From the NCBI GenBank assembly GCA_963706595.1, contig OY970166.1, positions 3,264,001 through 3,328,000 on the forward strand: a DNA stretch of 64,000 bases. The letters are read 5' to 3'. The notes below the pieces were generated by a model that made no database searches, had not been told where the DNA came from, and saw nothing but the letters and a program-made list of their open reading frames with translations. This stretch comes from an uncultured cyanobacterium. Lineage in GTDB: Bacteria > Cyanobacteriota > Cyanobacteriia > Cyanobacteriales > Nostocaceae. The position numbers and the translations under genes were made by a program. Shown piece after piece: positions 7,175-48,482 of this stretch; the first letter of the stretch is position 1, and each line of letters starts with the position of its first letter.

Positions 7175-7260
7175 TGGTGGGCCGGGCTGGATTTGAACCA
7201 GCGTAGGCGCTAGCCAACGGATTTACAGTCCGTCTCCATTAACCACTCGGACACCGACCC
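7175..7260 (-). tRNA. trnY: tRNA-Tyr(GTA), CCA encoded
   Basis: Reverse complement GGGTCGG...ACGGA-CT GTA AA-TCCGT, long variable arm, TTCAAAT T-loop, ends ACCA; tandem with tRNA-Thr. Confidence 0.96.
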
Positions 7261-26598: not shown

Positions 26599-27213
26599 TT
26601 ATTCTTTAGCCAACACACCATTGAGAAAGATATCAGCTAATCCTTCAGCCATTTGCTGCATTTCTTGAGGTGAAGCGTCTGGAGCCATGAGGGTATTATT
26701 AGAAAATCCGGCGATCGCAAACATTCCCAAAAACACCTTAGCGACTAATTTAGCATCAGTTTGGCGATAAATACCCTTATCCATCGCAGATTGAAAGAAA
26801 GCTTCAGCCACATCAGTCATTTTACCAATGACTTCTTCTTGAATGCGATCGCGCAAATCTGGATGAAACTGCACCTCCATAAAACAAACCTTCATTAAAT
26901 CTACATTTTTGTGTAAATTCCACATCCGACGACGCATGACTTGAGCGATCGCCTTATAACTGCCCATTTCACTCAACTCTGTGAGCAAATCTGTTAAGAT
27001 GTCCACCCAGCCACTAGTAGCTACTTCCACTAAAATAGATTTTTTATTGGAAAAATGACGAAACAAAGTGCCTTCAGCCACATTTGCAGCTTGGGCTAAA
27101 TCGCGGGTGGTAGTGCCATCAAATCCCTTAGAAGCAAATAACTTCTGTGCCGCCTGTAAAATGCGGGTACGTGTTTGTGCTTCTGAAGGTGGAGGTGAAT
27201 TAAAAACTCGCAT
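26599..27213 (-). CDS. TetR/AcrR family transcriptional regulator
   Basis: ILQAAQKLFASKGFDGTTTRDLAQAANVAEGTLFRHF HTH. Confidence 0.93.
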   Translation of the reverse strand: MRVFNSPPPSEAQTRTRILQAAQKLFASKGFDGTTTRDLAQAANVAEGTLFRHFSNKKSILVEVATSGWVDILTDLLTELSEMGSYKAIAQVMRRRMWNLHKNVDLMKVCFMEVQFHPDLRDRIQEEVIGKMTDVAEAFFQSAMDKGIYRQTDAKLVAKVFLGMFAIAGFSNNTLMAPDASPQEMQQMAEGLADIFLNGVLAKE

Positions 27214-27420
27214 ATAAATTATTGTGTGATCTTCGGAACGCGACTTGTATCATTATTGTCTAACGTTCAGGTACAAAAAGCGCAGAAAGCTTAATACAAG
27301 GTTAATTACAGTCTAAAAAAGATTCCGGCTCCCTCTCCTTGCTAAGGAGAGGGTTGGGGTGAGGTTTTAGCTCCCACAGGATATTTATCAGATAATGGAA
27401 CTTTAATTTTATTGTCGCTT

Positions 27421-29025
27421 ATGAATCAACCCAATTATTCAACGATCAGATTGCGCCAGCTCGTGACCATTTTGATGGTACTCGTAATTTGCTGGTCGGG
27501 GTTACTTCCAGACATAGCTCTGGCACAAACTCAAACTGCAAATCCTCTCCAAAGAATTCGGCAATTTCGTCAAACTCCACCAAAGCCAAATTCGATTCAA
27601 CCGTATTTAGATCGGGTAATTGAGCAATTAACGGAGTTTCGCCTAGAAAATGGGTTGAAATTCATCGTCTTGGAACGGCATCAAGCCCCTGTAGTTTCGT
27701 TTCTGACTTACGCTGATGTGGGTGGTGTGGATGAGCCAGAAGGACAAACTGGTGTAGCCCACTTTCTAGAGCATTTAGCATTTAAAGGCACGACGCGCAT
27801 CGGCACAAAAGACTACGAAGCCGAAAAACTGTTACTCGACCGCTTAGAACAATTAGATGCTCAAATTAGAACCGCAAAAGCCGATGGTAAACAAGATGAT
27901 GCGACTCAATTGCAAACTGAATTTAAGCAAGTAGAGTCCCAAGCAGATGCACTAGTTAGACAGAATGAACTGGGGCAAATTGTCAACCAATCCGGCGGTG
28001 TAGGTTTAAATGCTACTACTTCAGCAGAAGCAACTAAGTATTTTTACAGTTTCCCTGCAAATAAGTTGAAGCTATGGATGTCATTGGAATCAGAGCGATT
28101 TTTAGAGCCTGTGGTGCGGCGCGAGTTTTACAAAGAAAAAGATGTGATTTTAGAAGAACGGCGGATGCGGGTAGATAATTCGCCTATCGGGATGATGGTG
28201 GAGAATTTTGTGGCTACTGCTTTCACCGTCCATCCCTACAAACGACCGGTGATTGGTTATGAAGAAGATATCCGCAATCTCACACCGGAAAATGTCCAAA
28301 ACTTTTTTGATGCTCACTATGTACCGAGTAATTTAACCATTGCTATTGTTGGAGATGTTGATCCGGCGGAAGTGAAAAGACTGGCAAAAATTTATTTTGG
28401 CCGCTATCGAGATCAACCACAAGCAAAGTCCAGTATTCCGGCTGAACCACCACAAACGCAAACACGAGAATTTACTTTAGAACTAGCTTCTCAGCCTTGG
28501 TATTTGGAAGGCTATCACCGCCCATCAGTTAGCCATCCCGATAATGCAGCGTATGAAATGATTGGTGGTTTATTAAGTAATGGGCGCACGTCGCGTTTGT
28601 ATAAATCTTTGGTAGAGCAGCAGCGTTTAGCATTAAATGCTCAGGGTTTTAGTGGCTTTCCTGGGGATAAATACCCAAATTTGATGTTATTTTACGCTCT
28701 CACTGCTCCTGGTAACACAGTGGATGAAGTAGCAGTAGCTTTGCGACAAGAAATCGACAAATTGAAAGTTGAACCTGTGGCGGCGGCTGATTTGCAACGG
28801 GTGAAAACCCAAGCACGGGCGAGTTTGTTACGTAGCCTTAATTCCAATATGGGGATGGCGCAGCAGTTATTGGAAGCAGAGGTGAAAACTGGTTCTTGGC
28901 GGAATTTGTTTAAACAATTAGATGAGATTTCGCAAGTGACAACAGCTGATATTCAACGGGTGGCGAAGGCGACTTTTACACCGGAGAATCGCACAATTGG
29001 CAAGTTGTTGTCGAAACAAGGATAA
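27421..29025 (+). CDS. M16 family zinc peptidase (active subunit)
   Basis: HFLEH inverzincin motif, LNATTS, EERR; signal peptide. Confidence 0.92.
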   Translation: MNQPNYSTIRLRQLVTILMVLVICWSGLLPDIALAQTQTANPLQRIRQFRQTPPKPNSIQPYLDRVIEQLTEFRLENGLKFIVLERHQAPVVSFLTYADVGGVDEPEGQTGVAHFLEHLAFKGTTRIGTKDYEAEKLLLDRLEQLDAQIRTAKADGKQDDATQLQTEFKQVESQADALVRQNELGQIVNQSGGVGLNATTSAEATKYFYSFPANKLKLWMSLESERFLEPVVRREFYKEKDVILEERRMRVDNSPIGMMVENFVATAFTVHPYKRPVIGYEEDIRNLTPENVQNFFDAHYVPSNLTIAIVGDVDPAEVKRLAKIYFGRYRDQPQAKSSIPAEPPQTQTREFTLELASQPWYLEGYHRPSVSHPDNAAYEMIGGLLSNGRTSRLYKSLVEQQRLALNAQGFSGFPGDKYPNLMLFYALTAPGNTVDEVAVALRQEIDKLKVEPVAAADLQRVKTQARASLLRSLNSNMGMAQQLLEAEVKTGSWRNLFKQLDEISQVTTADIQRVAKATFTPENRTIGKLLSKQG

Positions 29026-29029
29026 GACA

Positions 29030-30577
29030 ATGAACCGCACAGACACAGAGGACAGGTCAAGCAAAAGGCAGATGGGATTAAGAATGTTCAATTTAAAATT
29101 GAGGTTGGGTAAGAGTAAGGGACTATTTTATAGTTTGATTCTGGCTGTTGCCTGTTTATTGGTCAGTTTTAACTTTTCTTTGGCGGCGACGGCGGCGGCG
29201 AAGCATTATACTGAGTTGGAACTTGCGCCGTTACCTGAGATTAAGTTGCCTAAAAATGAGCGCTTTGTTCTCAAAAACGGTTTGGTTGTGTATTTGATGG
29301 AGGATCACGATCTGCCGTTGGTGAATGGTACGGCTTTGATTCGCACAGGCGATCGCTTAGAACCAGCTGATAAAATCGGGTTGGCTGGTTTTACGGGTGC
29401 GGTGATGCGGACTGGGGGAACTCAGAAGCATTCGGCTGATCAAATCAATCAGATTTTGGAACAACGCGCTGCTAGTGTGGAAACTGCAATTGGTGAAGCT
29501 TCCGGTAGTGCTGGTTTTGAGTCTCTGACTGAAGATTTAGAAACAGTGTTTGATTTGTTTGCCGAGGTACTAAGAGAGCCTGTATTTGACCAAAAACAGT
29601 TAGATTTAGCAAAAACTCAGGCTAGGGGTGGTATTGCCCGTCGTAACGATGATCCAGACGATATTGCTAGCCGGGAATTTCAGAAATTAATTTATGGTCA
29701 AGATAGCCCCTATGCTCGCACACCTGAGTATGCGACGCTGGATAATATTTCTCGTGAGGATTTAGTTCAGTTTTACCAGGAATATTTTCATCCCAATCAG
29801 ATGATTTTGGGAATTGTGGGGGATTTTGAACCGCAAAAAATGCGATCGCTCATTCAAGCTAAGTTTGGTGATTGGGAACGTTCCCCTCAAATGACTCAGC
29901 CCCAATTATCCGAGGTAAAGCCAGCGAATACAGGTGGTGTATTTTTTGTCAATCAACCACAACTAACTCAGAGTAGTGTATTGATGGGGCATATCGGCGG
30001 TAAGTTTGACAATCCTGATTATGCCGCCTTGGATGTCTTGAATGGGGTATTAAATGGATTTGGTGGACGCTTATTAAATGAAGTGCGATCGCGCCAAGGA
30101 TTAGCATACTCTGTATATGGTTACTGGAGTCCTCGCTTCGATTATCCAGGAATGTTTATCGCCGGCGGACAAACGCGATCGGATGCTACAGTCCAGTTTG
30201 TCCAAGCCTTACAGACTGAAATCAAGCGTATCCAAGCCCAACCTGTTACCGCCCAGGAACTAGCTTATGCCAAAGAGTCTACCCTCAACTCCTTTGTCTT
30301 CAACTTCCAAGACCCCGCTCAAACTTTATCACGGTTGATGCGATACGAATATTACGGCTATCCGGCTGATTTCTTATTTCGCTATCAAAAAGCCGTAGCC
30401 GCCACAACAGAAGCTGATGTGCAACGGGTAGCGCGAGAATACCTCAAACCAGAAAAACTGGTGACTCTAGTCGTGGGGAATCAGACCGCCATACAACCGC
30501 CATTAACACAGTTAGCTGCATCAGTAACGCCCATAGATGTGACAATTCCAGGTTCACAAACACAGGCGCAAAATTAA
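29030..30577 (+). CDS. M16 family peptidase (non-catalytic partner subunit); start uncertain
   Basis: LKNGL, EDHDLP, RL..EVRSRQGLAYSV; lacks HxxEH. Confidence 0.88.
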   Translation: MNRTDTEDRSSKRQMGLRMFNLKLRLGKSKGLFYSLILAVACLLVSFNFSLAATAAAKHYTELELAPLPEIKLPKNERFVLKNGLVVYLMEDHDLPLVNGTALIRTGDRLEPADKIGLAGFTGAVMRTGGTQKHSADQINQILEQRAASVETAIGEASGSAGFESLTEDLETVFDLFAEVLREPVFDQKQLDLAKTQARGGIARRNDDPDDIASREFQKLIYGQDSPYARTPEYATLDNISREDLVQFYQEYFHPNQMILGIVGDFEPQKMRSLIQAKFGDWERSPQMTQPQLSEVKPANTGGVFFVNQPQLTQSSVLMGHIGGKFDNPDYAALDVLNGVLNGFGGRLLNEVRSRQGLAYSVYGYWSPRFDYPGMFIAGGQTRSDATVQFVQALQTEIKRIQAQPVTAQELAYAKESTLNSFVFNFQDPAQTLSRLMRYEYYGYPADFLFRYQKAVAATTEADVQRVAREYLKPEKLVTLVVGNQTAIQPPLTQLAASVTPIDVTIPGSQTQAQN

Positions 30578-30826
30578 AACTTACCTAGAGACGCGATTCA
30601 TCGCGTCTCTATTCCCATGAAAAGACTCAATATAAAAACTGTTAATACTATAAAAAAAATCTCTTTTAAAGACACAATTACTTGAGATTTGTCTAGAAAA
30701 TCACCAAAATTCTATTGACTTTTCTTAATCAAATTGCCAAATATAAAGAATAGATTATAATTTTGCAGCATAATCTTTTTGCAAGTCTTACTGAGTTTCA
30801 CTGTAAGTATTTCAGGAGTTAATTAC

Positions 30827-31087
30827 ATGGCTAGGATAGAAATTGATGACTTGTACCCTAGTAATCATCAACAGCTTCTCAATGAAATAACAGACAGGGA
30901 AATGCAGACAGTGGAGGGACGAGAAGGAAACACAGTCAGCACAGGAATCAATGACCTGAATGAACAATCTTTAGCCAATACATTAGAGCAAAATATCGAT
31001 AATCTTCTTTTTCACCTGAGAAACCAAATGGGTGTAGTGATTTTTGGTGCTAGAAATCAATTTAATCAAGGATTCAATTCTTTTTAA
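30827..31087 (+). CDS. Divergent precursor-like small protein (MARIEIDDLYP...VEGR)
   Basis: AGGAG RBS; leader resembles array leaders (MA.I.i.eL.P....lLnEitD....v.G). Confidence 0.55.
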   Translation: MARIEIDDLYPSNHQQLLNEITDREMQTVEGREGNTVSTGINDLNEQSLANTLEQNIDNLLFHLRNQMGVVIFGARNQFNQGFNSF

Positions 31088-31356
31088 TTAATTTTGATAT
31101 TCAAATAACCATCCATTTTGCGTTTAAATTTATTTAAATTTTGAAAATTTCTGATAAAAATCAATAGCCACGATAGCAATATTCAATGGTTTGCAAACAC
31201 CGCGAGGCTCAGATCCCCGACTTCTTGAAGAAGTCGGGGATTTTTATTTATTGAAAACTCTGGTTTCTTCAAGACACTGGGCTTTTGAAGTCTCACAATA
31301 TATTCCAGCGACTATTAAATCTACATTTTGTATGTTGCAATTATTCAAAGAAGTGT

Positions 31357-31663: not shown

Positions 31664-31921
31664 ATGGCAAACATCAAATTGTCTAAGCTAAATGCTACTG
31701 GTTCTGAGTTATTCCTAGATTCTGAGAGTTTTCTCAATGAATTGAACGATGTCGATTCAATTACTGGTGGTAGTACCTCTGGTCAAGGTTACAACCAAGG
31801 CCACGGCTATGAAGGATTCAGTGGTATTTCAACACTAACTAAATTAGCCGAGGCATTTGTCACAGTCTATGCGATTGGTCATGTTACCGAGCTAGCCAAG
31901 TCATTCAGCCACGGATACTAA
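31664..31921 (+). CDS. Double-glycine RiPP precursor 1
   Basis: Leader MANIKLSKL.ATGSELF.DSESFLNEL.DVDSITGG; conserved core helix TLTKLAEAFVTVYAIGHVT.LAKSFS; GAGGAG RBS. Confidence 0.85.
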   Translation: MANIKLSKLNATGSELFLDSESFLNELNDVDSITGGSTSGQGYNQGHGYEGFSGISTLTKLAEAFVTVYAIGHVTELAKSFSHGY

Positions 31922-32094
31922 TGGCTTCAGGTAACTAGTAAGCTATCAGGCTCTTGCGGATTAGAGCTAATAAGTAATCTATGTGATTAACATGGACTTT
32001 CTTAATTATCAATAATCCCTGAGAGCCAACCAGCTTAAACAATTTTCTGTAAACTTGCTTAATTGCGACAAGACAAGACTGTTAGGAGTAAATC

Positions 32095-32331
32095 ATGGCG
32101 AATATCAAACTTTCTGAACTACACGCTGCTGGTTCTGAATTATTCAACGATTCTGAAAGTTTCTTGAATGAATTCAGCGATGTAGACTCCATTTCCGGTG
32201 GTGGAATTGGCGGCTACGCTGGAGGAGTTAGCAACCCAGCAACATTAATGAAGCTAGCTGAGGCATTTGTGACTGTATATGCTATTGGTCACGTGACCGT
32301 GTTAGCTAAATCATTCAGCGCAAACATTTAA
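32095..32331 (+). CDS. Double-glycine RiPP precursor 2
   Basis: Same leader ending SISGG and same C-terminal helix; AGGAG RBS. Confidence 0.87.
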   Translation: MANIKLSELHAAGSELFNDSESFLNEFSDVDSISGGGIGGYAGGVSNPATLMKLAEAFVTVYAIGHVTVLAKSFSANI

Positions 32332-32492
32332 TGGTTCTGGTTTACTACAGAGCTTGATGGTTTTCCAGGGATTAAAGATAAAAAGCTATCTATGTGAATA
32401 ACATGAGCTTTTGTTATTACCAATAATCCCTGTGGTCTAGCTAAATCTAAGCAATTTTCAGTTCATTACAACAAGTCTTTTAGGAGAAAATC

Positions 32493-32738
32493 ATGGCAAA
32501 TATTACACTGTCCGAATTAAACTCTGCTGGTTCTGAATTGTTTCAAGATTCTGAAAGTTTTTTGAATGAATTCAGCGATGTAGACTCCATCTCTGGTGGT
32601 CAAGGCTACGGTGGTGGACTAGGCGCTCAAGTTGCTGTCAGTGATCCTACGACACTGAATAAGCTCGCTGGCGCATTTGTGACTGTATATGCCATTGGTC
32701 ATGTAACTGTGTTAGCCAAGTCATTTAGTGGCATTTAA
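32493..32738 (+). CDS. Double-glycine RiPP precursor 3
   Basis: Same leader/helix architecture; AGGAG RBS. Confidence 0.87.
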   Translation: MANITLSELNSAGSELFQDSESFLNEFSDVDSISGGQGYGGGLGAQVAVSDPTTLNKLAGAFVTVYAIGHVTVLAKSFSGI

Positions 32739-32907
32739 TGACTTTGGGTAACTGCTGAAATTGATGGCTCTTTAGGAATTAAAGGTAAAAACTAATTTAT
32801 GTGATTACCAATAATTCCTAAGAGCCGACTAGACACCATCTTGATCTTCACTGAAACTAACAAGTCTTCACAAGTTCACAAGTTCACAAGTCTTTTAGGA
32901 GTACATC

Positions 32908-33159
32908 ATGGCAAATATCACTCTTTCTGAATTACACGCTGCTGGTTCTGAACTATTCAACGATTCTGAAAGTTTCTTGAATGAATTCAGCGATGTGGAT
33001 TCCATCTCTGGTGGAGCAGCAGTTGCCGCTACAGGTGCAACCTATGCCGCCAGCAATCCTTTGACACTGACCAAATTGGCTGAAGCCTTTGTGACTGTAT
33101 ATGCCATTGAACACGTAACTATCTTGGCTAAATCCTTCAGCCTAACTGGTGTTTACTAG
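32908..33159 (+). CDS. Double-glycine RiPP precursor 4
   Basis: Leader ends SISGG; core AAVAATGATYAASNPLTLTKLAEAFVTVYAIEHVTILAKSFSLTGVY. Confidence 0.87.
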   Translation: MANITLSELHAAGSELFNDSESFLNEFSDVDSISGGAAVAATGATYAASNPLTLTKLAEAFVTVYAIEHVTILAKSFSLTGVY

Positions 33160-33303
33160 CTCTAGTTAACAACTCGAATAAATGGCTCTTTGGGGATGAA
33201 AGGCATGATTTGATTACCACTTATCCCCAAGAGCCAGACAGATTCAACGCTCTCGATTTTCATTGAAACAAACAAGTCTTCACAAGTCTTTTAGGAGTAC
33301 ATC

Positions 33304-33573
33304 ATGGCTAATATCACTCTTTCTGAATTACACGCTGCTGGTTCTGAACTGTTCAACGATTCTGAAAGTTTCTTGAATGAACTCAGCGATGTTAATTCCA
33401 TCTCTGGTGGACAAATTGGCTACGCTGGTGGTGCTACCGTCGCTACAGGTGCAACCTATGCCGCCAGCAATCCTTTGTCACTGACCAAGTTGGCTGAAGC
33501 CTTTGTAACTGTATATGCCATTGAACACGTAACTATCTTGGCTAAATCCTTCAGCCTAACTGGTGTTTACTAA
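33304..33573 (+). CDS. Double-glycine RiPP precursor 5
   Basis: Paralog with extra QIGYAG-like segment after GG. Confidence 0.87.
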   Translation: MANITLSELHAAGSELFNDSESFLNELSDVNSISGGQIGYAGGATVATGATYAASNPLSLTKLAEAFVTVYAIEHVTILAKSFSLTGVY

Positions 33574-33721
33574 TCACTGTGATTAGTTACTTCAAATAAA
33601 TGGCTCTTTGGGGATGTAAGGCATGATTTGATTACCAGTAATCCCCAAGAGTTAGCCAAATTCAACGCTCTCGATTTTCACTGAAACAAACAAGTTCTCA
33701 CAAGTCTTTTAGGAGTACATC

Positions 33722-33973
33722 ATGGCTAATATCACTCTTTCTGAATTACACGCTGCTGGTTCTGAACTATTCAACGATTCTGAAAGTTTCTTGAATGAAT
33801 TCAGCGATGTAGATTCCATCTCTGGTGGAGCAGTAGTTGCCGCTACAGGTGCAACCTATGCCGCCAGCAATCCTTTCACATTGACCAAGTTAGCTGAAGC
33901 CTTTGTAACTGTATATGCCATTGAACACGTAACTATGTTGGCTAAATCCTTCAGCCTAACTGGTGTTTACTAG
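33722..33973 (+). CDS. Double-glycine RiPP precursor 6
   Basis: Near-identical to precursor 4. Confidence 0.87.
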   Translation: MANITLSELHAAGSELFNDSESFLNEFSDVDSISGGAVVAATGATYAASNPFTLTKLAEAFVTVYAIEHVTMLAKSFSLTGVY

Positions 33974-34117
33974 CTCTAGTTAACAACTCAAATAAATGGC
34001 TCTTTGGGGATTAAAGGCATGATTTGATGACCAGTAATCCCTAAGAGCCAGACAGATTCAACGCTCTCGATTTTCACTGAAATAAACAAGTCTTCACAAG
34101 TCTTTTAGGAGTACATC

Positions 34118-34369
34118 ATGGCTAATATCACTCTTTCTGAATTACACGCTGCTGGTGCTGAATTGTTCAACGATTCTGAAAGTTTCTTGAATGAATTTAG
34201 CGATGTCGATTCCATCTCTGGTGGTCAAGTTACCATCGCTACAGGTGCTACCTACGTCGCCAGCAATGCTAGTACATTGACCAAATTAGCTGAAGCTTTT
34301 GTAACTGTATATGCCATTGAACACGTAACTATCTTGGCTAAATCCTTCAGCATAAGTGGTGTTTACTAA
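34118..34369 (+). CDS. Double-glycine RiPP precursor 7
   Basis: Same architecture, ends SFSISGVY. Confidence 0.87.
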   Translation: MANITLSELHAAGAELFNDSESFLNEFSDVDSISGGQVTIATGATYVASNASTLTKLAEAFVTVYAIEHVTILAKSFSISGVY

Positions 34370-34517
34370 TCACTGTGATTAGTTACTTCAAATAAATGGC
34401 TCTTTGGGGATTAAAGGCATGATTTGATTACCAATAATCCCTAAGAGCCAGACAGATTCAACGCTCTCCATTTTCACTGAAACAAACAAGTCTTCACAAG
34501 TCTTTTAGGAGTACATC

Positions 34518-34769
34518 ATGGCTAATATAACTCTTTCTGAATTACACGCTGCTGGTTCTGAACTATTCAACGATTCTGAAAGTTTCTTGAATGAATTCAG
34601 CGATGTAGATTCCATCTCTGGTGGAGCAGCAGTTGCTGCTATAGGTGCAACCTATGCCGCCAGCAATCCTTTCACATTGACCAAGTTAGCTGAAGCTTTT
34701 GTAACTGTATATGCCATTGAACACGTAACTATCTTGGCTAAATCCTTCAGCATAAGTGGTGTTTACTAA
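34518..34769 (+). CDS. Double-glycine RiPP precursor 8
   Basis: Same architecture, ends SFSISGVY. Confidence 0.87.
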   Translation: MANITLSELHAAGSELFNDSESFLNEFSDVDSISGGAAVAAIGATYAASNPFTLTKLAEAFVTVYAIEHVTILAKSFSISGVY

Positions 34770-34917
34770 TCACTGTGATTAGTTACTTCAAATAAATGGC
34801 TCTTTGGGGATTAAAGGCATGATTTGATTACCAATAATCCCCAAGAGCCAGACAGACTCAACGTTCTTAATTTTTAAGAAAACAAATAAGTGTTCACAAG
34901 TCTTTTAGGAGTAATTC

Positions 34918-35163
34918 ATGGCAACTATCACTCTTGATCAACTATATGCTACTGGCTCTGAACTGTTCCACGATTCCGAAAGCTTTCTCAATGAACTGAG
35001 TGATGTCGATTCTAGCTCTAAGGATCAATACAACGTTGTCGGCGGCATAATTACATTCACTGCATTCGCTGGAGCATTTGTTGGTACGTATGCCATTGGT
35101 CATGCTACTTATGTGGCCAAGTCATATAGTCAACCATACTATGGGTATGGGCGGCGCTTCTAG
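34918..35163 (+). CDS. Divergent RiPP precursor 9
   Basis: Leader GSELFHDSESFLNELSDVD with GG shifted (NVVGG); core AGAFVGTYAIGHATYVAKSYS. Confidence 0.8.
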   Translation: MATITLDQLYATGSELFHDSESFLNELSDVDSSSKDQYNVVGGIITFTAFAGAFVGTYAIGHATYVAKSYSQPYYGYGRRF

Positions 35164-35617
35164 CTTTGTAGTTAACTATTAATCTTGATGGCTGTCTTGA
35201 GATTAAAGGTAAAAAGTAAGCAATTCTATCTGAGCAAAAACCTCATAATACAAAATAATGTTAAACATTCAGTTTCACATAAAATATAGAATTGCCCACT
35301 CTTATCTTAATCAGGTTTTGCATAACAAAAGCCTTACAGCCAGCCAAATTTAAAAAAATATGCTGTAATTCGATAACTAAATTGAAACTTAATTAAGACT
35401 AGGATCACAATTGGTGGATAAATCTGGCGACAATCGTCAAGATTGCTCAATTACCTAAATTAGATGAATTTAATTTAGTAGTCGTGGAAGATTGGGAATA
35501 AATGACAGTTTAACCTGAGCCAGGATAGCACATTAGTTGACGAATGATTAAGCTGACACTTACTGAAAGTAGCTAGCATTAATTCATTACTCAATATTTT
35601 GTGTGGAAATCAAGTAA

Positions 35618-35881
35618 ATGGCAAGAATTGTAATTTCTGAACTACACCCGACTAATTCCGAAAGCTTTTTAATCGAAATAACAGATATGTTTTCAATATC
35701 TGTGTATGGGGGGAATCAATATGTAATTGACTATGGATTTCATCAAATGCTGACCTTTACTTATAAGCTGATGGATTTTATGTTGTCAGCATTTGCTATC
35801 TACAGTATTGTCTCCCTTGCACATTCATTTATTACTGCGTCTGAGCTTAACTTTGCACCTGTTCAGTTTTACTCTTTCTAA
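35618..35881 (+). CDS. Divergent RiPP precursor 10
   Basis: Leader MARIVISELHP.NSESFL.EI.D....VYGG; core KLMDFMLSAFAIYSIVSLAHSF aligns with KLAEAFVTVYAIEHVTILAKSF. Confidence 0.72.
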   Translation: MARIVISELHPTNSESFLIEITDMFSISVYGGNQYVIDYGFHQMLTFTYKLMDFMLSAFAIYSIVSLAHSFITASELNFAPVQFYSF

Positions 35882-36015: not shown

Positions 36016-37197
36016 ATGCCATTTTTATTAAGCTATCAAAATGTTTTTGACTACCTAATTCCCCTGGGATTATGTACTGAAGAAGAACGTTCATTGAGCA
36101 ATATTGAACTAAAACCTGCTAAAAACTTTAACTTATTACTCAGTTTATCAGAGGATAAGAAACTGCTAGTTAAGCAAGAGCGTCACAACCGAGAAGGAAA
36201 AACCGCCGGTGAGTTTGTGCAGGAATGGCGAATTCATGAGTTTTTGCAAAGAAACCCTGAACTTAGCTATGTGCGCCCTTTGCTTTCAGAAGCAGTACAT
36301 TTTGATGCAGAAAATTCGATCATTATTTTCAACTATCTCAATAATTATCGAGATGTAGCGGATTTTTACACCAAGGAGAATATTTTTCCTACACAGGTGG
36401 CGACCAAAATTGGCACTATTCTGGCATTAATTCATCGCGTTAGTATTCAACGTCCTGAGTATCGGGAGTTCTTTGAAAATTCTCAGGATGTACCGAGTCA
36501 AGATCCACCCAAACTAAATCAGAGAATGGATCGGATTACGCCGGAAATCTTTGGTAACGTTCCGGCTGACGGGTTGAAATTCTTTGCTCTTTATCAACGT
36601 TACGATAGTTTGGGTCAGGCGATCGCACAAGTAGGTAATTCCTATACTCCTTACTGTTTGACTCATAACGACATGAAGCTAAACAACATTCTCATCTCCT
36701 TAAATTGGCAAGATGTGAATTTAAATAGCTCATCCTCAGACCAAAGCATGATTCGATTAATTGACTGGGAACGCTGTTCTTGGGGAGATCCAGCTATCGA
36801 TTTAGGCTCATTACTCGCTAGTTACTTGCAATTATGGCTGTATAGCGTAGTCGTTGGTAAAGGAATGGAAATTGAAGAGTCTTTACGTTTAGCTACAACG
36901 CCTTTGCAAACACTCCGTCCTTCACTTGCTGCACTAGTTAAAGCTTATTTAGCAGAATTCCCCCAAATCTTAGAAGATCGTCCTGATTTCCTGCAACGAG
37001 TAGTGCAGTTTTGCGGTTTAGCCTTAATTCAATCTATTCAAGCCACACTCCAGCATGAAAAAACTTTTGGTAATCCTGGTATCAGTATGCTCCAAGTTGC
37101 TAAGAGTTTATTGTGTCGTCCAGAAGCATCTATACCCACTATTTTCGGTATGGATGCGTCGGATTTGACTCCTACTCAATATTCATCTGCACGTTAA
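36016..37197 (+). CDS. Aminoglycoside-phosphotransferase-like kinase (LanK-like, putative peptide Ser/Thr kinase)
   Basis: LLVKQE, LTHNDMKLNNIL (HxDxxxxN), RLIDWE, GDPAIDLG; adjacent to HopA1-like gene. Confidence 0.85.
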   Translation: MPFLLSYQNVFDYLIPLGLCTEEERSLSNIELKPAKNFNLLLSLSEDKKLLVKQERHNREGKTAGEFVQEWRIHEFLQRNPELSYVRPLLSEAVHFDAENSIIIFNYLNNYRDVADFYTKENIFPTQVATKIGTILALIHRVSIQRPEYREFFENSQDVPSQDPPKLNQRMDRITPEIFGNVPADGLKFFALYQRYDSLGQAIAQVGNSYTPYCLTHNDMKLNNILISLNWQDVNLNSSSSDQSMIRLIDWERCSWGDPAIDLGSLLASYLQLWLYSVVVGKGMEIEESLRLATTPLQTLRPSLAALVKAYLAEFPQILEDRPDFLQRVVQFCGLALIQSIQATLQHEKTFGNPGISMLQVAKSLLCRPEASIPTIFGMDASDLTPTQYSSAR

Positions 37198-37206
37198 AGC
37201 GTTTGG

Positions 37207-37404
37207 AAGACGCGATAGAAGACGCGATAAATCGCGTGATAGAAGACGCGATAAATCGCGTCTCTACAAAATATTTGGAAGCCCCCTCATCGCTTGCGGG
37301 GAGGGGGTTGGGGGTGGGGTTCTTGTACCTCATAACACCGGGAAGACGCGATAAATCGCGTCTCTACACAATATTTGGAAGACGCGATTTATCGCGTCTC
37401 TACA
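37207..37404. repeat. Cluster of GACGCGATAAATCGCGTCTCTAC palindromes plus GC-rich repeat between the kinase and HopA1 genes
   Basis: Four to five copies of AGACGCGATAAATCGCG(TCTCTACA); related units near 30587, 39076 and 41765. Confidence 0.85.
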
Positions 37405-37444: not shown

Positions 37445-38551
37445 ATGCAACTATTAGATTCGCTACAAACACAACTAGCTACTATTCCTGAGCCTTTGCA
37501 GACATCAATACAAGACATTATTCATAAAGTTGAAATTGTTTCCCATCATTGTATTAAGCACCCAAACTATAAAAGCGTAGAATTAACTGAGCAAGCAGTT
37601 TCCCGCTTTCAAAAATTGCCGTTAGACCTCCAGAACAAATATTTAGCACTCCAATTGCGTAGTTTTCTTTATGGTGTCTACTACAACGGTTCTTTGCAAG
37701 AGGAACTCAATCTCACATCAGATGGAGAGTCAAAAAATGTAGCATTGAATCGGGATTTAGAAAATAATAGCTTTTTGGGTGTAGATATCGGTTTCTATGA
37801 CCGCTTACATGAAAGTAACAGAGGTGAAGGCTACTTCAGCCACGATTGGCTGGTAATCAAAGAAGAAACAGATGGTGCTTTGGCTGTGCATAAGGGTGGT
37901 TTAACTCTGCACATTGAGCGTGAGCAACACTTGCGACCAGAAGATCAAGCTGTAACTATCGGTAGTTTAGTTCCGATCAAATTACCCAAGAATGTGGTGC
38001 AGAATGGATTCTATATGGCAGTTGGCAATGAAGCTGCTCATGGTGATCAAGAAATAGTCAGGATCTACTTTAATTTATCCCCAGACGGTGCTGTTGCTGT
38101 CATGGATGGTTTGACTACCCAACTCAATGCTCTGCCAATTTCCTTCACATTTAAAGCCCTATATAATCCTACAGATTATGGACGTTGTGACTCAGCAGTG
38201 CTTTACTTTGACAAACACAACTATGAAGTTGTTCGTCCAGTATTAGAACGGGTGTATACAGAAAATAAATCACATTTTGGCGATTCAGTGCCTTTGTTTA
38301 CTAAATTACTTGCGCCAGGGTTAGCTCTTGCGGAAGAACCAAATAGCAAGTTTACAGACCGTGAAAGTTTTGGGATGAACCGATGCCAAATTATTGCTAA
38401 TGCTTTGCTTGATGTTTGGCAGCAAGATAATGATACGCCAGCAGGTAGGTTAGAATCTATTCTGAAACATTTCTCTATGCTGGAAATTGAATTGCAACGT
38501 CCTTATCTCAATTCCCATTCTGAAGATATCTTTACTTCTTTGCAGTTTTGA
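37445..38551 (+). CDS. T3SS effector HopA1-family protein (LanY-like phospho-lyase)
   Basis: LRSFLYGVYY, GFYMAVG, VRIYFNL, F.FKAL..P..YGRCDSAVLYF, VPLFTK.LAPGLALAEEP, ESFGMNRCQIIA. Confidence 0.85.
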   Translation: MQLLDSLQTQLATIPEPLQTSIQDIIHKVEIVSHHCIKHPNYKSVELTEQAVSRFQKLPLDLQNKYLALQLRSFLYGVYYNGSLQEELNLTSDGESKNVALNRDLENNSFLGVDIGFYDRLHESNRGEGYFSHDWLVIKEETDGALAVHKGGLTLHIEREQHLRPEDQAVTIGSLVPIKLPKNVVQNGFYMAVGNEAAHGDQEIVRIYFNLSPDGAVAVMDGLTTQLNALPISFTFKALYNPTDYGRCDSAVLYFDKHNYEVVRPVLERVYTENKSHFGDSVPLFTKLLAPGLALAEEPNSKFTDRESFGMNRCQIIANALLDVWQQDNDTPAGRLESILKHFSMLEIELQRPYLNSHSEDIFTSLQF

Positions 38552-39488: not shown

Positions 39489-40319
39489 ATGCAAGCGGGA
39501 ATAGGAAAATATTTGGCAATCTTCGAGCCAGAAGTATTGCAAAATTTTTTGCAGCTAATTCGATTAAAATTTCATCTAAATTTTGGATTTGTTCTTTTAG
39601 GAGCATTAAGTTTTGCTAAACAGATAGATATTCCACTAATAGTTTCTATATTAGTGATGTACTTATCTTTTAATGTCTGTCTCTACGGTGGCATTTATAC
39701 AATGAATGCTATTACAGACCTCGAAAAAGATGCTAAACATCCACTTAAAAAAAATCGCCCCTTACCTTCAGGAAGAATTAGCATGAATACAGCCATAATC
39801 TTGGCTGTATCTTTAATTTCTTTAGGACTATTCGTGGGTTTTTTCTACTTCGGTAGAAACATTGGGTTGCTCTATATTACCTTTATTGGTGTTAACATTT
39901 TCTACTCATTTGTAGCCAGGAACGTCCCATATCTTGAATTATTTGTCAATGCAAGTACCATGCCAATTCGATTATTAATGGGTACTTTTTTAGCTGTTGA
40001 TGGTTTAGTACCGACGGTTTTGATGTTTGCAGCTTTTTGTATGGGAATTGGTTTTCTTTCTATAAGAAGAATAGTTGAGAAAGATATAAATAACTGGACA
40101 GAAGCTCGCCCTGCTTTAAAAGCTTATCAGGGAAATATCATGGTTTGGTTACAATTTATCTTTTTTGTTGGACTTCTTTTCGCATGTGAGTTTGATCCTT
40201 TTATCCACCAAGATTTTGTGGGCTACTTGCTGATGGTGATTTATTACATAGTTTTCTGTTTAGGAACTCATGTATTTCCTGCAATAAGAGGTTACTGGAC
40301 TCAATACTACGGGTATTGA
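39489..40319 (+). CDS. UbiA family prenyltransferase
   Basis: YTMNAITDLEKDAKHPLKKNRPLPSGRIS (NxxxDxxxD...RP.PSG motif); multi-TM; YS motif. Confidence 0.85.
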   Translation: MQAGIGKYLAIFEPEVLQNFLQLIRLKFHLNFGFVLLGALSFAKQIDIPLIVSILVMYLSFNVCLYGGIYTMNAITDLEKDAKHPLKKNRPLPSGRISMNTAIILAVSLISLGLFVGFFYFGRNIGLLYITFIGVNIFYSFVARNVPYLELFVNASTMPIRLLMGTFLAVDGLVPTVLMFAAFCMGIGFLSIRRIVEKDINNWTEARPALKAYQGNIMVWLQFIFFVGLLFACEFDPFIHQDFVGYLLMVIYYIVFCLGTHVFPAIRGYWTQYYGY

Positions 40320-40630
40320 TCATATTGAGTAAAAGACGTTGAAAAAGAATACATTGTTAGACTAATTTCTTCATAATTTATTAGTGTGTTAATTAAACTG
40401 ACCACTAATTAATTCTTAGCATTATCTTGGATTGAGTTAGTCTTAAATCTATATCATTCATCTACCAGTCGTACATAATTTTCGGGTTGTATCTGATTCA
40501 TGCTTTATTTTTCAATCAAGAACTGCTTCTGCTAGGACAAAAATATCTAGATTTCGATAATCAATTTGATAATTTTGTCCTAGTAGGATTTCTTTGACAA
40601 CATATTATTATCCTCAAGGGCTTGGTTAAT

Positions 40631-41299
40631 ATGAGTTTATTTATTGGCTTAAATCAAACTAAACAAATACAAAGCATTAATTTTGATAAGTTCAATGCGG
40701 TTATTTTCGATGTTGATGGGACTTTCTACAATCTGAAAAAGATGTATAGTCTAATGCGCTTGGAAATCCTCAAATACTATCTAAATCATCCTTGTGAAAT
40801 TCGGGATATCAAAATTATCATAGATTTCCTGCGGGAACGTGAACGAAATGCCTTTGAAATTGTTGATGATTTGGAGAATGCTCAATATGAATGGGCAGCC
40901 AAAGCATCAGGAGCTTCATTAGAAAAGGTTCGCGCTTTAGTACAAAAATGGATTTTTAAAGTCCCTTTGGAACATATATATACTTGCCGCTATCTACCAG
41001 TTTTGGAGTTATTTGAAAATCTCACGCAGAAAGGTATAGCTACTGGTATATTTTCAGATTATCCAGCAACAGCAAAGCTGGCTAAATTAGGTCTATCTCC
41101 TAACTGCATTGTTAGCTCAACAGATGAAAATGTTCGTCGGCTCAAGCCCGACCCTCAAGGTTTATTTGTTGCTACTGAAATTCTAGGAGTTTCAGTGAAA
41201 CAATGTTTATTTATCGGTGATCGTGATGACAGGGATGGGGAATGTGCCAGGAGAGCAGGTATGCCATATCTAATATTAGGTAAAAGCTTTCTAGTATAA
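40631..41299 (+). CDS. HAD family hydrolase/phosphatase
   Basis: FDVDGT motif I, KPDP, FIGDRDDRD motif IV. Confidence 0.9.
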   Translation: MSLFIGLNQTKQIQSINFDKFNAVIFDVDGTFYNLKKMYSLMRLEILKYYLNHPCEIRDIKIIIDFLRERERNAFEIVDDLENAQYEWAAKASGASLEKVRALVQKWIFKVPLEHIYTCRYLPVLELFENLTQKGIATGIFSDYPATAKLAKLGLSPNCIVSSTDENVRRLKPDPQGLFVATEILGVSVKQCLFIGDRDDRDGECARRAGMPYLILGKSFLV

Positions 41300-41810: not shown

Positions 41811-42593
41811 CTATGCTGGTTTTACCAAATTAGCTGATGCTTGAATATTTGTATTTTCTTGCAGATTGGCGACAATTTCGACAGTGGCTATTTGTTGCTG
41901 TAGCCAATTGGTAAAAAAGTCTCCCATAATTTGAAACCGCAAGTTGTCATCTAATTCTGGTTTAATTATTTCCTCAACTGCAATGATATGCGCTCCTTTG
42001 GGTGTAATGATTGGTTTAAGAATTTGTGGGGGATTAGCAGCAAAAACTGCGGCGGCGATCTCGGCTCGAAAATCAATCCGGCGGCGGATTCCCTGATAGC
42101 CACCAGAACGACGGGTTTCGGGATTTTGAATGTATTGACGAGCAATTTCTTGGAAGCTGATTTCGCCTTCTTGGAGGGCATAAAATAGTTCTAAGGCTAA
42201 ATCTTCATCATCTAAAATCACTTCATAAGTGACTGCGCCAAAATATTTTGCTTGATGAGCATAAAAGAATGGTTCGATTTGCTCTGCAAATAAATGATTG
42301 GCTAATTTGGAGGATGTGAGGTTGATTTTAGCTATTTCTTCTAAGTCATCCAGAGAAAGATGATGTTTTTCTAACCAAGACCAAGTATCTTCAGCTTTGA
42401 GTAATTGGTTAGCTAAACGAAGATTATCTGCTGCTGTTTGTAGTTCTTCTGTGCTGATTTCAATTCCTGCTTTATCGGCTGCTTCTGCAATGATTTTTTG
42501 AGTGGCGATCGCTTCTAATATGACTGGAATTTGACAAGCCATTTTTATATAGTAAATAATGTCTTCGGTTGAAACTTTTAAAATGTTTGACAT
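41811..42593 (-). CDS. PpiC-type peptidylprolyl isomerase associated with type I secretion
   Basis: ELQTAADNLR, ALELFYALQEGEISF..IARQY, GGYQG, PIITPKGAHII. Confidence 0.85.
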   Translation of the reverse strand: MSNILKVSTEDIIYYIKMACQIPVILEAIATQKIIAEAADKAGIEISTEELQTAADNLRLANQLLKAEDTWSWLEKHHLSLDDLEEIAKINLTSSKLANHLFAEQIEPFFYAHQAKYFGAVTYEVILDDEDLALELFYALQEGEISFQEIARQYIQNPETRRSGGYQGIRRRIDFRAEIAAAVFAANPPQILKPIITPKGAHIIAVEEIIKPELDDNLRFQIMGDFFTNWLQQQIATVEIVANLQENTNIQASANLVKPA

Positions 42594-42934: not shown

Positions 42935-44482
42935 CTAAAGTTCTAGACCGCCTTGTTGCAATTTCTTAAAGGGATCTAAGATAAAGTCAATGACTCGGCG
43001 CTGACGAATAACTACCTCTGCGGTGGCTGTCTGACCGGGGGTTAAATTAACGCGTTGGTTAGCAGCTTGTACATAAGGTTGATCTAGGGTGATATCTAAA
43101 TCATAAGTGTCTATACTGCCTTGGTTGCTAGACTGAGTTCTAGAATTAGGTGAAATCCAACTCACACGCCCTTCCATCACGCCATAATCTTGATAGGGAT
43201 AGGCATCAAATTTGATTTTAACTGGCATTCCTTCCTCTAAGAAACCACTGTGTTGGCTGGGTATCTGGGCTTTGAGAATCAATTTACTATCTTGAGGCGC
43301 AATTTGGGCAATGATTTGTCCTGGTTCGACTACAGGCCCTGGTTTGCGGATGGGCATCTCAAAAATTATGCCATCAATAGGCGATCGCACTACGCGCTGT
43401 TTCATCTGAATCTGCAAGGACGAAATCTGACTCTTGGTTTGAGCCATTTCTGAGTCCAGTGTACTAATTTGCGTTTCCATGTCTTTGAGTTGTTCCTGGC
43501 TTCTCAGCACTGCTAATTTACCAGCTTGAACAACGCTTTGATAGCTACTTTGCTGTTCTTGTAAACGTAGTTTTGCTTGCTCAATATCCGCGACAACTTG
43601 ACTCATAGTCGCCTGATAGCGGCTCATTTCTTCTTTTAAACGTAGTTGCGCTTGAGTGACATCAGATTGTGCTTGTAAATGCAAGCGTTGGCTGTCCTCT
43701 GCTGTTTTTTCTAATTCCACAAGTTGGATTTGCGGAATTGCACCCTGTTCGTACAATTCGCGAAAGCGTGCAACTTCGGCGACATCTCTGTTAAAACGAC
43801 TATTAACTAACTTCTCAGTAGTCTCGGTAGAATTAATATTCTGCCGAGCTTGTTCAACTAAAGCCTGTCTTTCTAACCTTTGTAAATTAGACGCACTTTG
43901 TCTCGCATCCAGGGTTTGCTGCGCCTGATTAACTTGAGACATTTTTTCTAATTCTTGGGCTTGATTTTGTTGTTCTTGGATATTGATCGCCAGCATCAAT
44001 TGGTTTTTCAGCAGCTTAAGTTGCGCTTGGCGATCGCTTAATCCTTGTAGTTGTGTTTGTCTCTGTTGCAATTCTTTTTCCAGGACATCAGAATCCAACT
44101 CCAGCAGCACCTGTCCAGCTTTAACTATTGCACCTTCTTGGACATTGACAGTTTTCACAGTCCCAGGAACTGGAATACCTAATTGATGCGTTGCTCCTTT
44201 GGGTTCTAAACGCCCTCTAGCGCTGCCGGTTTCATCAATTTTGGTGAGCATCGACCAAGGTAAAATGATCGAGGTAAATCCTACCAAAAAGTACAGCATA
44301 GAACGTGTCCAAAGTCTTGGTAAAGCATCTAGCAGTTCTTCTGTACCATAAAACCAATCATTGGTTTGGTTTTCTACCTGTGTCTGATTATCAACAACAG
44401 CACTAGAGTTTTCAACCTGGTGATTTTGGTCTTGCTGTGGTGCAGCAAGTACGGATGATAAATGTTGAGATGGGTTTGGCAT
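42935..44482 (-). CDS. HlyD family membrane-fusion protein
   Basis: TM anchor, ARGRLEP, long coiled coil, RSPIDG, KFDAYPYQDYG, LTPGQTATAEV. Confidence 0.93.
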   Translation of the reverse strand: MPNPSQHLSSVLAAPQQDQNHQVENSSAVVDNQTQVENQTNDWFYGTEELLDALPRLWTRSMLYFLVGFTSIILPWSMLTKIDETGSARGRLEPKGATHQLGIPVPGTVKTVNVQEGAIVKAGQVLLELDSDVLEKELQQRQTQLQGLSDRQAQLKLLKNQLMLAINIQEQQNQAQELEKMSQVNQAQQTLDARQSASNLQRLERQALVEQARQNINSTETTEKLVNSRFNRDVAEVARFRELYEQGAIPQIQLVELEKTAEDSQRLHLQAQSDVTQAQLRLKEEMSRYQATMSQVVADIEQAKLRLQEQQSSYQSVVQAGKLAVLRSQEQLKDMETQISTLDSEMAQTKSQISSLQIQMKQRVVRSPIDGIIFEMPIRKPGPVVEPGQIIAQIAPQDSKLILKAQIPSQHSGFLEEGMPVKIKFDAYPYQDYGVMEGRVSWISPNSRTQSSNQGSIDTYDLDITLDQPYVQAANQRVNLTPGQTATAEVVIRQRRVIDFILDPFKKLQQGGLEL

Positions 44483-47700: not shown

Positions 47701-47828
47701 TTGGCTACAGGTGGTTCGACAATTTCTACCCCAATCAAACATCTTTCAATTTCTTGCTCTGATAACGGCTCACCCAGGCTGTGGATAAGTTGTTGCGCTA
47801 AGTATTCCGGGGAAAATGCTGATGCCAT
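44778..47828 (-). CDS. Peptidase-containing ABC transporter (cNMP-binding + C39 peptidase + TM + ATPase)
   Basis: QQSAADCGAACL (catalytic Cys), AHWEGRHYVV (His), VGDPA (Asp); GRSGSGKTT, LSGGQRQR, LDEAT; N-terminal GASFGE cNMP-like domain. Confidence 0.94.
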   Translation of the reverse strand: MASAFSPEYLAQQLIHSLGEPLSEQEIERCLIGVEIVEPPVAKQFWQAANAPNGIYLVLGGKVRLLDGSNNLITTLTTGASFGELTLFTEEEFSPYVARASVKLKLAYFPQASLQEVIRKHPSIRDRLKQRAELWDLLLLCCQTSLVPHNGSVEEILKALTLFERHTVEGDSLPVTLFQDTKLWLLHQGELQHTDGRRLTPGNIYVYPQQENWRATQLTKVYSLKNAHWPLVLEYWPQLAELSQNPQEVTEDTPTPAITPSLIRQLPPPDPEPKKKRKQAYFPSPTVKAGHWWGRLTKRYPFYEQQSAADCGAACLVMISRYWGKRLSVNRLRDLANINRTGASLRGLTTAAESIGFTTRPVKASLDKLAQQTLPAIAHWEGRHYVVVYEVSKKQVIVGDPAFGQRTLTHEEFKAGWTGYALLLQPTAQLKETEENSTQFWQLFELVKPHSKVLLEVFMASVFIQIFGLVTPLLTQLLLDRVLVQRSTLTLNAVGFGLLIFGLFSVIINGLRQYLLDHTANRISVALLVGFIKHTFRLPLAFFESRYVGDIISRVQENYKIQRFLTGEALSITLDLLTVFIYVGLMFWYSAPMALLSLTIIPPFFILALVATPFFRRINREAFNATANENSYLIQSLTGISSIRSMAIEQTVRWHWEELLNNVIKKTFAGQIISNKMQLFSSGIETLVTTGLLWFGAWLVIQNQLTIGQLVAFNMLLGNVIRPFQRLVVLWNQFQEVVISSERINDVLEAEPEEDLHHHPRQFLPRLEGHIKFENVTFRYHPESDINVLENLSFEILPEQTVAVVGRSGSGKTTLAKMILGLYLPTDGKVLIDAQDVTSISLRSLRSQIGVVDQDTFLFGGTIRENINIAHPEATLEEIIEAARLAGADEFIKLMPTGYETQIGEGGGMLSGGQRQRIAIARALLGNPRLLLLDEATSHLDSESERIIQNNLKTILQGRTSLIIAHRLSTVRNADLILVLDRGLLVESGTHDELIAKKGHYFYLNQQQLAQTAQTA

Positions 47829-47849: not shown

Positions 47850-48482
47850 TTATTTATTGGTCTGAATCAGATTTAATGACCAATTAAAATTAGGTTCGGA
47901 GTGAGATTGCAAATCGCCAATTCTAATTCCAGCATCCATTCGGCTTCGCTCATGACAAGCCTTGGTTTGGTCAGTTTCTGGTGGCTGGGAACTTTTCCGT
48001 TTAGTGGATAGTCCCATTTGTTTAAGTAGGCGATTAATGTGGCGATCGCTAATTTGGATGTTAAATTCGTTAGCTAAATGTTTGCTTAACCATTGGGCTG
48101 TCCAATAAGTAAATGCATAACCATAATCACGAGGGCTATGGCTGACCAACTCTTTCAAACGATCCAGATATTGATCATTCACAATTTTCGGTCTCCCAAT
48201 AGGTCGCTCATTCCACTTGTGCGCTAAACCTGCTTCCGCTAAACCAATCCAGTAACGCGCCATTTCCTGAGAACAACCGATAGTTTCACAGATTTGACTT
48301 TGAGATTTACCCACATCGGCTAATAACATAATTTCAATGCGCCGCCGATATTCTGGCTGTAAATCAGTTTGTAAGCTTTTCAGCAATGCCTTCTTTTGAA
48401 AAGAGGTTAAAAACTTACCTTCTTGAAAATTTTGGATGTTGTAATTTTCCAAGTTTTCGCTTTGACTAAGAGAGTGTGACAT
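47850..48482 (-). CDS. Helix-turn-helix protein (IS630-like HTH domains, no DDE), probable regulator
   Basis: RRRIEIMLL, GCSQEMARYW, GRPK, WTAQWLSKHL...ISDRHINRLLKQMGL; first gene of the secretion operon. Confidence 0.75.
   Translation of the reverse strand: MSHSLSQSENLENYNIQNFQEGKFLTSFQKKALLKSLQTDLQPEYRRRIEIMLLADVGKSQSQICETIGCSQEMARYWIGLAEAGLAHKWNERPIGRPKIVNDQYLDRLKELVSHSPRDYGYAFTYWTAQWLSKHLANEFNIQISDRHINRLLKQMGLSTKRKSSQPPETDQTKACHERSRMDAGIRIGDLQSHSEPNFNWSLNLIQTNK

Follow-up and report, generated by a model that had tools for sequence, protein, structure and literature searches.

A tandem array of double-glycine-leader peptides beside a LanK/LanY-like enzyme pair in Nostocales, with a conserved C-terminal segment as the probable core

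The window analysed here is a stretch of 64,000 nucleotides (nt) from an uncultured cyanobacterium of the Nostocaceae (assembly GCA_963706595.1, contig OY970166.1, forward-strand positions 3,264,001–3,328,000). It contains a tandem array of ten small peptide genes at positions 31664–35881, followed by genes for a predicted kinase and a predicted lyase. The peptides share a hydrophobic C-terminal segment, which is most likely the core peptide, that is, the product itself, with the variable stretch ahead of it a dispensable spacer. The reading we prefer, at about even confidence, is that the array encodes the precursors of multi-component, exported, dehydrated helical peptides, in which the conserved segment would be the core and LanK/LanY-type dehydration would occur most likely at its invariant serine.

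The ten open reading frames (ORFs) of the array lie on the + strand and encode peptides of 78–89 amino acids (aa). Copies 1–8, here called canonical, occupy positions 31664–31921, 32095–32331, 32493–32738, 32908–33159, 33304–33573, 33722–33973, 34118–34369, and 34518–34769. Copy 9 (34918–35163, +) is of a shifted Gly-Gly type, and copy 10 (35618–35881, +) is of an 'X type', called copy-10 type below. A repeat search recovered ten copies of the 45-nt gene start at intervals of 396–431 nt, widening to 700 nt ahead of the last, and nine copies within the window of the 96 nt encoding the conserved segment, while Tandem Repeats Finder reported a period of 400 with 5.3 copies and 88% matches at 32883–35019. 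The protein alignment of copies 1–8 shows a 36-aa leader with Gly-Gly at residues 35–36, a variable Gly/Ala/Tyr stretch of ~13–22 aa, and the conserved hydrophobic segment ending in LAKSFS, followed by a short tail (HGY, ANI, GI, LTGVY, or ISGVY). The variable stretch measures 3–22 residues overall and is of low complexity. Minor variants of the segment carry TLMK, TLNK, or SLTK for TLTK, and copy 3 has LAGAF. An earlier note on this DNA had described the order of Gly-Gly, variable stretch, conserved segment, and short tail, and had seen the segment persist in the divergent copies 9 and 10; the ORFs and the alignment confirm the first claim and bear out the second for the pattern, with the letters themselves changed. 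The leaders carry a charge of −3 to −7. None of the ten window peptides contains Cys, and only four of the 233 peptide ORFs from the window and related loci contain any.

Related loci were collected by scanning genome contigs with the peptide alignment, which gave 186 pattern matches, 179 of them confirmed. The best 80 were used and correspond to 75 loci from 42 genomes (counted by hand), all labelled Nostocales except two metagenome-assembled genome bins. All ORFs of these loci, designated by L numbers, were searched with a hidden Markov model (HMM) of the peptides and with the proteins neighbouring the array in the window. Three loci (L048, L073, L074) have the typical Nostocales-type arrangement in bins labelled 'Chroococcales cyanobacterium' and 'Cyanobacteriota bacterium', labels that may be coarse or bins that may be mixed.

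Residue counts and entropies come from 220 unique peptides of the window and the related loci, aligned by HMM. Mean column entropy is 1.08 bits in the leader, 1.27 in the segment (columns 54–78), 2.54 in the variable stretch, and 3.36 in the tail. Among window copies 1–8, the proportions of synonymous (pS) and non-synonymous (pN) differences are 0.54 and 0.10 in the segment (ratio 0.19) and 0.38 and 0.06 in the leader (ratio 0.15); between loci, pN/pS is 0.32 for the segment and 0.26 for the leader (3000 sampled pairs each). Because synonymous differences far exceed non-synonymous ones in the segment, its conservation reflects purifying selection and not recent copying. No residue of the entire peptide is more invariant than Ser76, the first Ser in KS(F/Y)S, which 219 of the 220 peptides have. 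This count should be read with the retrieval of the loci in mind: it relied on two patterns, one of which contained LAKS and thus favoured members with that motif, and the search with the leader alone, given below, serves as the control. Other residues kept are Ile67 (211 of 220), Ala74 (204), Lys75 (199), Ser78 and Lys56 (196 each), and the two Gly of columns 35–36 (196 each), followed by the His69 (170) and Thr71 (131) of canonical peptides. The proposal in the earlier note that the conserved His and Lys are candidate nucleophiles stands only in part: Lys is found in 199 and His in 170 of the 220 peptides, but the copy-10 type retains neither. Ser76 is the stronger signal and, together with the adjoining LxmK/LxmY-like enzyme pair, points to dehydration at that position; cross-links to Lys or His are pure speculation.

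A protein search with copy 4 returned 279 matches, and the named ones all belong to Nostocales (Nodularia, Anabaena, Trichormus, Umezakia, Chrysosporum, Anabaenopsis, and Nostoc). The conserved motif is present in 119 of the 120 homologues listed among these 279, the exception being a 58-residue fragment. A different picture emerges with a profile of the leader only, which was run against 1.84 billion cluster representatives and gave 796 matches at E ≤ 0.001. Among the best 150 of these 796, eight carry AKS[FY]S, four more have a related ending, and the rest have unrelated cores; Cys occurs in 41 of the same 150. The leader is thus common to a large family of cyanobacterial peptides whose cores are highly diverse, and the conserved segment marks one subfamily of it. 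The earlier note had called a conserved C-terminal segment unusual for peptides of this kind, on the rule that such arrays conserve the leader only. Both points agree with these counts: the leader family as a whole follows the rule and the present array departs from it. Homologous arrays from the 42 genomes retain the segment, so the refuting condition that the note had named, lack of its conservation in such arrays, does not hold. A search of the ESM Atlas with the mature part returned only the family's own cyanobacterial clusters, with scores of 0.77–0.78. At E ≤ 0.01, the four of the ten array copies that were scanned (copies 1, 4, 9, and 10) matched no Pfam or NCBIfam family, and neither did a further small peptide encoded upstream of the array. 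The name 'CTB family bacteriocin', applied to Nodularia genes (PMC9846622), was considered and set aside; the window peptides scanned match no NCBIfam model.

The peptides fall into fixed classes. In 38 of 39 loci a gene of the copy-10 type closes the array ahead of the kinase gene (25 recognised by HMM and 13 by eye), and L071 alone lacks one. Its leader has no GSELF block, its Gly-Gly lies at residues 31–32, and its core follows the pattern AI..I..L..SF. In the most distant loci, L072–L075, canonical and copy-10 types are closely alike, and for this reason the two are old paralogues with a single shared core. Copy 9 differs in another way: its usual Gly-Gly site is degenerate (SSSKD), a new VVGG lies directly ahead of the segment, and Tyr, Gly, and Arg abound in its tail. 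Peptides of this type occur in 12 loci of the Nodularia/Anabaena clade, and in all 12 a [V/I/L][V/I]GG abuts the conserved segment. A precursor whose cleavage site abuts the segment has no other core to offer, which is why the segment is most likely the core. The earlier note had instead placed the core in the variable stretch and given the helix an accessory role, as scaffold or recognition element; the 12 loci with Gly-Gly directly in front of the segment speak against that assignment.

The two enzymes encoded after the array are an APH-fold Ser/Thr kinase of 393 aa, LxmK-like (LanK; 36016–37197, +; PF01636, 1e-09), and a HopA1-family phospho-Ser/Thr lyase of 368 aa, LxmY/CaoY-like (LanY; 37445–38551, +; PF17914, 4.9e-60). 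Among solved structures, the kinase matches chain A of 9dk1 (E 0.0038) and the lyase chain B (E 2.1e-07); this entry is LxmKY, the dehydratase of lexapeptide (PMC12141560). All 39 kinase orthologues have intact HxDxxxxN and DWE motifs. In the lyase, an Arg/Lys/Arg/Tyr set (R...K-9-R-6-Y), spaced as R187/K219/R229/Y236 of CaoY, is present in 38 of 39 orthologues, and the same set is important in CaoY by mutagenesis (PMC9486802, section 6). In class V lanthipeptides and thioamitides, Ser/Thr dehydration is the work of paired HopA1 and phosphotransferase proteins (PMC9486802, PMC8153245). A Pfam scan of 14 of the larger window ORFs between 24445 and 48482 and of four peptide ORFs found only one APH-like protein and, among the larger ORFs, no LanX-like cyclase, LanD-like flavin decarboxylase, or reductase.

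The enzymes accompany the array across the order. In 38 loci and the window, kinase and lyase genes lie directly after the array with a gap of 22–832 nt, and array, kinase, and lyase occur together in 38 of the 42 genomes; in the other four the contig stops at the array. Ten of the 75 loci end less than 400 nt past the array and two have no ORF-level match. The usual gene order is DUF4332, TetR (−), M16, M16, polar peptide, array, kinase, lyase, PpiC-like (−), HlyD (−), and ABC (−), and the locus occupies one syntenic site across the Nostocales sampled. The M16 pair lies upstream of the array in 26 of the 29 loci with enough flank, and the PpiC/HlyD/ABC genes are present in 29 of 39 loci.

Export and processing genes flank the array on both sides. 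Downstream, on the − strand, lie genes for a PpiC-type rotamase-like protein, the 'SurA' of Wang 2011 (41811–42593; PF00639, 8.5e-10; TIGR04500, 1.4e-19, below the cut-off), an HlyD-family membrane-fusion protein (42935–44482; Pfam/NCBIfam scan), and an ABC exporter with N-terminal cNMP-binding and C39 peptidase domains (44778–47828; PF03412, 2.1e-41; PF00027, 3.2e-09). The C39 domain contains the Gln...Cys motif, and the exporter is presumed to be both the protease of the double-glycine leader and the export channel. Upstream, the M16 peptidase pair (27412–30577, +) consists of one protein with HFLEH (27412–29025) and one without HxxEH (28997–30577), both starting with a hydrophobic N-terminus; the pair may provide a second processing step.

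These components suggest the following route. Each gene would yield a precursor with a double-glycine leader of the very large cyanobacterial family. The LxmK-like kinase would phosphorylate core Ser/Thr, and the HopA1/LxmY-like lyase would eliminate the phosphate to leave dehydroalanine or dehydrobutyrine, the prime candidate site being the nearly invariant Ser of KS(F/Y)S. The C39 domain would then cut after Gly-Gly and the peptide would exit through ABC/HlyD, with the PpiC-like protein as a possible helper, and trimming of the variable Gly/Ala/Tyr spacer or of the tail may fall to the secreted M16 pair. The products would be hydrophobic helices of ~25–45 residues that may act jointly in or on a membrane. 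At least three fixed classes are represented among them: the canonical copies, of which there are several, and single copies of the shifted Gly-Gly type and the copy-10 type.

The physical character of the segment is compatible with such products. It is hydrophobic and not amphipathic, with a Kyte-Doolittle value of 1.2–1.8 and a hydrophobic moment of 0.05–0.11 in the best 18-residue window, and by these measures it resembles a helix that spans a membrane or is buried more than one that is surface-active. AlphaFold2 predicts for copy 10 (30-sequence alignment) one long helix at residues 32–78, with a predicted local distance difference test score (pLDDT) of 89–96 over residues 41–70, and for copy 4 (32-sequence alignment) a leader helix at residues 6–35 (pLDDT 61–74). 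The idea in the earlier note of a hydrophobic, multi-component, membrane-inserting system fits the hydrophobicity, the fixed classes, and the modelled copy-10 helix.

Several observations weigh against dehydrated helical peptides. The C-terminal helix of copy 4 (residues 51–78) is predicted only at pLDDT 45–51, and conservation along the segment has no peak at 100 degrees, peaking instead at ~80 and 130 degrees, so that all faces of the segment are constrained. Because the segment is rich in β-branched residues, canonical peptides may adopt a strand or amyloid-like state. The kinase scores 81.7 bits (5e-23) against NCBIfam LxmK NF038156, where the cut-off is 315, and is best regarded as a relative of LxmK and not an equivalog; no NCBIfam model matched the lyase. 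Twenty-five loci hold one to five canonical genes and at least 5 kb of downstream sequence without kinase or lyase, and therefore any modification there must act in trans. No product or phenotype for these peptides is described in the open literature searched, subscription journals lying outside it, and a published table gives asl1933 of Nostoc PCC 7120 as not expressed following nitrogen step-down (PMC4365693).

One alternative concerns the use to which the peptides are put: a lineage-wide physiological system of heterocyst formers, either a signal or an envelope or membrane component that serves filament life or commitment to differentiation, and not a set of weapons. It overlaps with the reading of the array as precursors of dehydrated peptides because it concerns purpose more than mechanism, and we consider it unlikely. 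The presence of the main locus in nearly all sampled Nostocales genomes (the four others being those whose contigs end at the array) speaks for it, as does its presence in Trichormus azollae and Raphidiopsis brookii D9 (L049, L065), both of which have reduced genomes. In 17 of 39 loci (L005, L009, L026, L032, L033, L036–L040, L047–L049, L054, L057, L072, and L073) the gene directly behind the lyase gene, and on its strand, belongs to the HetP family as recognised by a shared motif, and all three that were tested against NF037966 scored above the cut-off (4.7e-30 to 3.7e-22). In PCC 7120, this neighbour of the lyase is asl1930, which delays commitment, its deletion bringing heterocyst commitment forward (PMC9045159). 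Moreover, a published set of Nostocales signature proteins includes asl1936 and asl1937 (PMC2823733), and asl1933 belongs to the core genome of heterocyst formers (PMC4365693). However, the window has no HetP-like gene (tblastn, best E 0.2), copy number and variable parts change fast, as in arms-race genes, and the absence of a described peptide phenotype and the reported lack of asl1933 expression upon nitrogen step-down count here too. A locus at one site in heterocyst formers, often adjoining a HetP-family gene, may explain the function of some of the 'Nostocales signature proteins'.

Alternatively, the conserved segment could be a follower, a second recognition sequence for kinase, lyase, or M16 that is then removed, leaving the variable stretch as the product. 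The M16 pair makes a second cut possible, Wang 2011 also took M16 as a hint of further cleavage sites (PMC3140520), and conservation on all faces of the segment is expected of a bound recognition element. Set against this, the shifted Gly-Gly type has no variable stretch at all and is nevertheless kept in 12 loci, the stretch itself varies between 3 and 22 residues, is of low complexity, and reaches 2.5 bits of column entropy, and the sole nearly invariant Ser sits in the conserved segment. We regard a follower role as improbable.

A bolder reading, which we likewise consider a long shot, is a Nostocales-wide building or signalling system in place of an antibiotic library. Dehydroalanine made from the invariant Ser by kinase and lyase would react with the conserved Lys or His of adjacent peptides to form covalent, non-sulfur cross-links, and the classes would assemble in the membrane or envelope or act as a signal coupled to the HetP-type commitment switch that many genomes encode beside the lyase. 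Least probable of all are unmodified class-II-like multi-peptide bacteriocins with a kinase and lyase serving another substrate or regulation, an account that draws on the double-glycine leader, C39 ABC exporter, and HlyD, on hydrophobic helices in several adjoining classes, on the 25 loci without enzymes, and on one UniRef homologue named 'Bacteriocin', but that is at odds with kinase and lyase genes 22–832 nt after the array in all 39 loci holding them, catalytic motifs intact, with the invariance of Ser76, with the lack of a Pfam bacteriocin match in the four peptides scanned, and with one syntenic site across Nostocales, unlike accessory bacteriocin loci.

Other features surround the array. 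The upstream peptide mentioned above is polar, 87 aa long, and encoded at 30824–31087 (+); it has a double-glycine-type leader, with EG at the site in the window and GG in the orthologues of L004, L012, and L033. In 11 related loci its gene is conserved as the first of the small genes, and its sequence bears no relation to the conserved segment. A promoter-like site (11/12) lies ahead of its gene at 30734–30761, and a terminator-like hairpin of 15 pairs with a T run lies downstream at 31211–31243; the scans behind both gave counts below or at shuffled expectation (14 versus 22.7 and 5 versus 6.1, respectively). The TetR-family regulator (26599–27213, −) is syntenic with the locus. Between the lyase and the PpiC-like gene, the window has genes for a UbiA-family prenyltransferase (39489–40319) and a HAD hydrolase (40622–41299). 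As tailoring enzymes these two were rejected, with no ORF match in any of the 75 related loci, and they look like an insertion particular to the window's genome. The kinase-lyase spacer contains a short tandem repeat at 37206–37261 that can be read as a 24-nt unit repeated twice at 100% identity or a 12-nt unit repeated four times. An IS630-like transposase fragment of 210 aa (47850–48482, −; NF033545, 6.1e-23, below the cut-off) adjoins the ABC exporter gene. An Rfam scan of the whole window matched nothing within the array, its sole matches being tRNA genes at 5539–5611 (+), 7014–7085 (−), and 7178–7260 (−).

The loci that lack the enzymes lie among unrelated housekeeping genes. Several of them (L017, L019, L027, L031, L041, and others), with one to five canonical genes, share a second recurrent site that is flanked by a ModA-like binding protein with a fused ABC permease/ATPase and by a GFO/IDH/MocA oxidoreductase with DUF1822 and a sigma factor. 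Near-identical lone canonical genes of 73 aa occur on several contigs of Nostoc sp. MG11, Nostoc sp. B(2019), and Komarekiella (L059–L063, L066), where they adjoin a DDE transposase or pieces of ShlB/Omp85 genes, a pattern suggestive of dispersal along with some repeated or mobile element.

Two-peptide lantibiotics and class IIb bacteriocins resemble the array in having distinct peptides side by side in a fixed order, a double-glycine leader, and a C39 exporter. Lichenicidin beta and cytolysin undergo a second proteolytic trimming after export, and by analogy the same may hold for the array peptides. Unlike these systems, the array shows no sequence relation to a known family in the peptides scanned, has no thioether, and comprises more than two classes.

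Closer in enzymology are the class V lanthipeptides (LxmK-LxmY of lexapeptide, CaoK-CaoY of cacaoidin) and the thioamitides (TvaC/TvaD), in which a separate APH-fold kinase and HopA1-family lyase likewise adjoin the precursors. The window pair matches both chains of 9dk1, and its lyase keeps the Arg/Lys/Arg/Tyr set of CaoY. In contrast to class V lanthipeptides, the window peptides lack Cys, so neither lanthionine nor aminovinylcysteine (AviCys) is possible, the locus shows no LanX, flavin decarboxylase, or reductase in the scanned ORFs, and the system combines a double-glycine leader with a C39 exporter in a cyanobacterial host. Because there is no Cys in the window peptides and no LanX- or LanD-like gene was seen, the system would correspond to a class V lanthipeptide pathway in its dehydration half only, and it is not a lanthipeptide system.

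The cluster type itself has already been mined. Wang 2011 described as group II a long ABC exporter (CAP_ED plus C39) with HlyD, a SurA-like rotamase, M16, tandem precursors, and a HetP-like neighbour; the text of that study never mentions a kinase, and it reports very little core conservation (PMC3140520). A table in that paper includes asl1933–asl1938, CDS10, and asl1930 of PCC 7120. Family 1A of Eyles 2021 comprises 570 cyanobacterial peptides in 183 clusters near HopA1 and phosphotransferase genes and shares with the array the leader, the enzyme pair, the restriction to Cyanobacteria, and several non-identical precursors per cluster (PMC8153245). The supplementary table of Eyles 2021 includes the present subfamily, with LAKSFS 44 times and LAKSYS 23 times, Nodularia and Nostoc PCC 7120 among the sources, and the peptides it places near the PCC 7120 HopA1 gene (83, 73, 85, and 93 aa) have the lengths of asl1937, CDS10, asl1938, and asl1930 in the table of Wang 2011. 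The statement in the Eyles text that C-terminal regions are highly variable, with no conserved Ser/Thr/Cys, holds for the leader family but not for the array subfamily (PMC8153245), in which the core is conserved almost to the degree of the leader. Liang 2022 noted a cyanobacterial 'type-B LanA' group, whose leader and enzyme pair are as in the window (PMC9486802).

New, and described nowhere in the open literature searched, are the conservation of the core, the invariance of its Ser, and the existence of fixed classes in a fixed order. LanK/LanY clusters of cyanobacteria are the largest group of such clusters to come from mining, with no product in the open literature searched, and this subfamily gives a concrete handle on them: one near-invariant Ser, a core that barely varies, fixed partner classes, and orthologues in PCC 7120, asl1933–asl1938.

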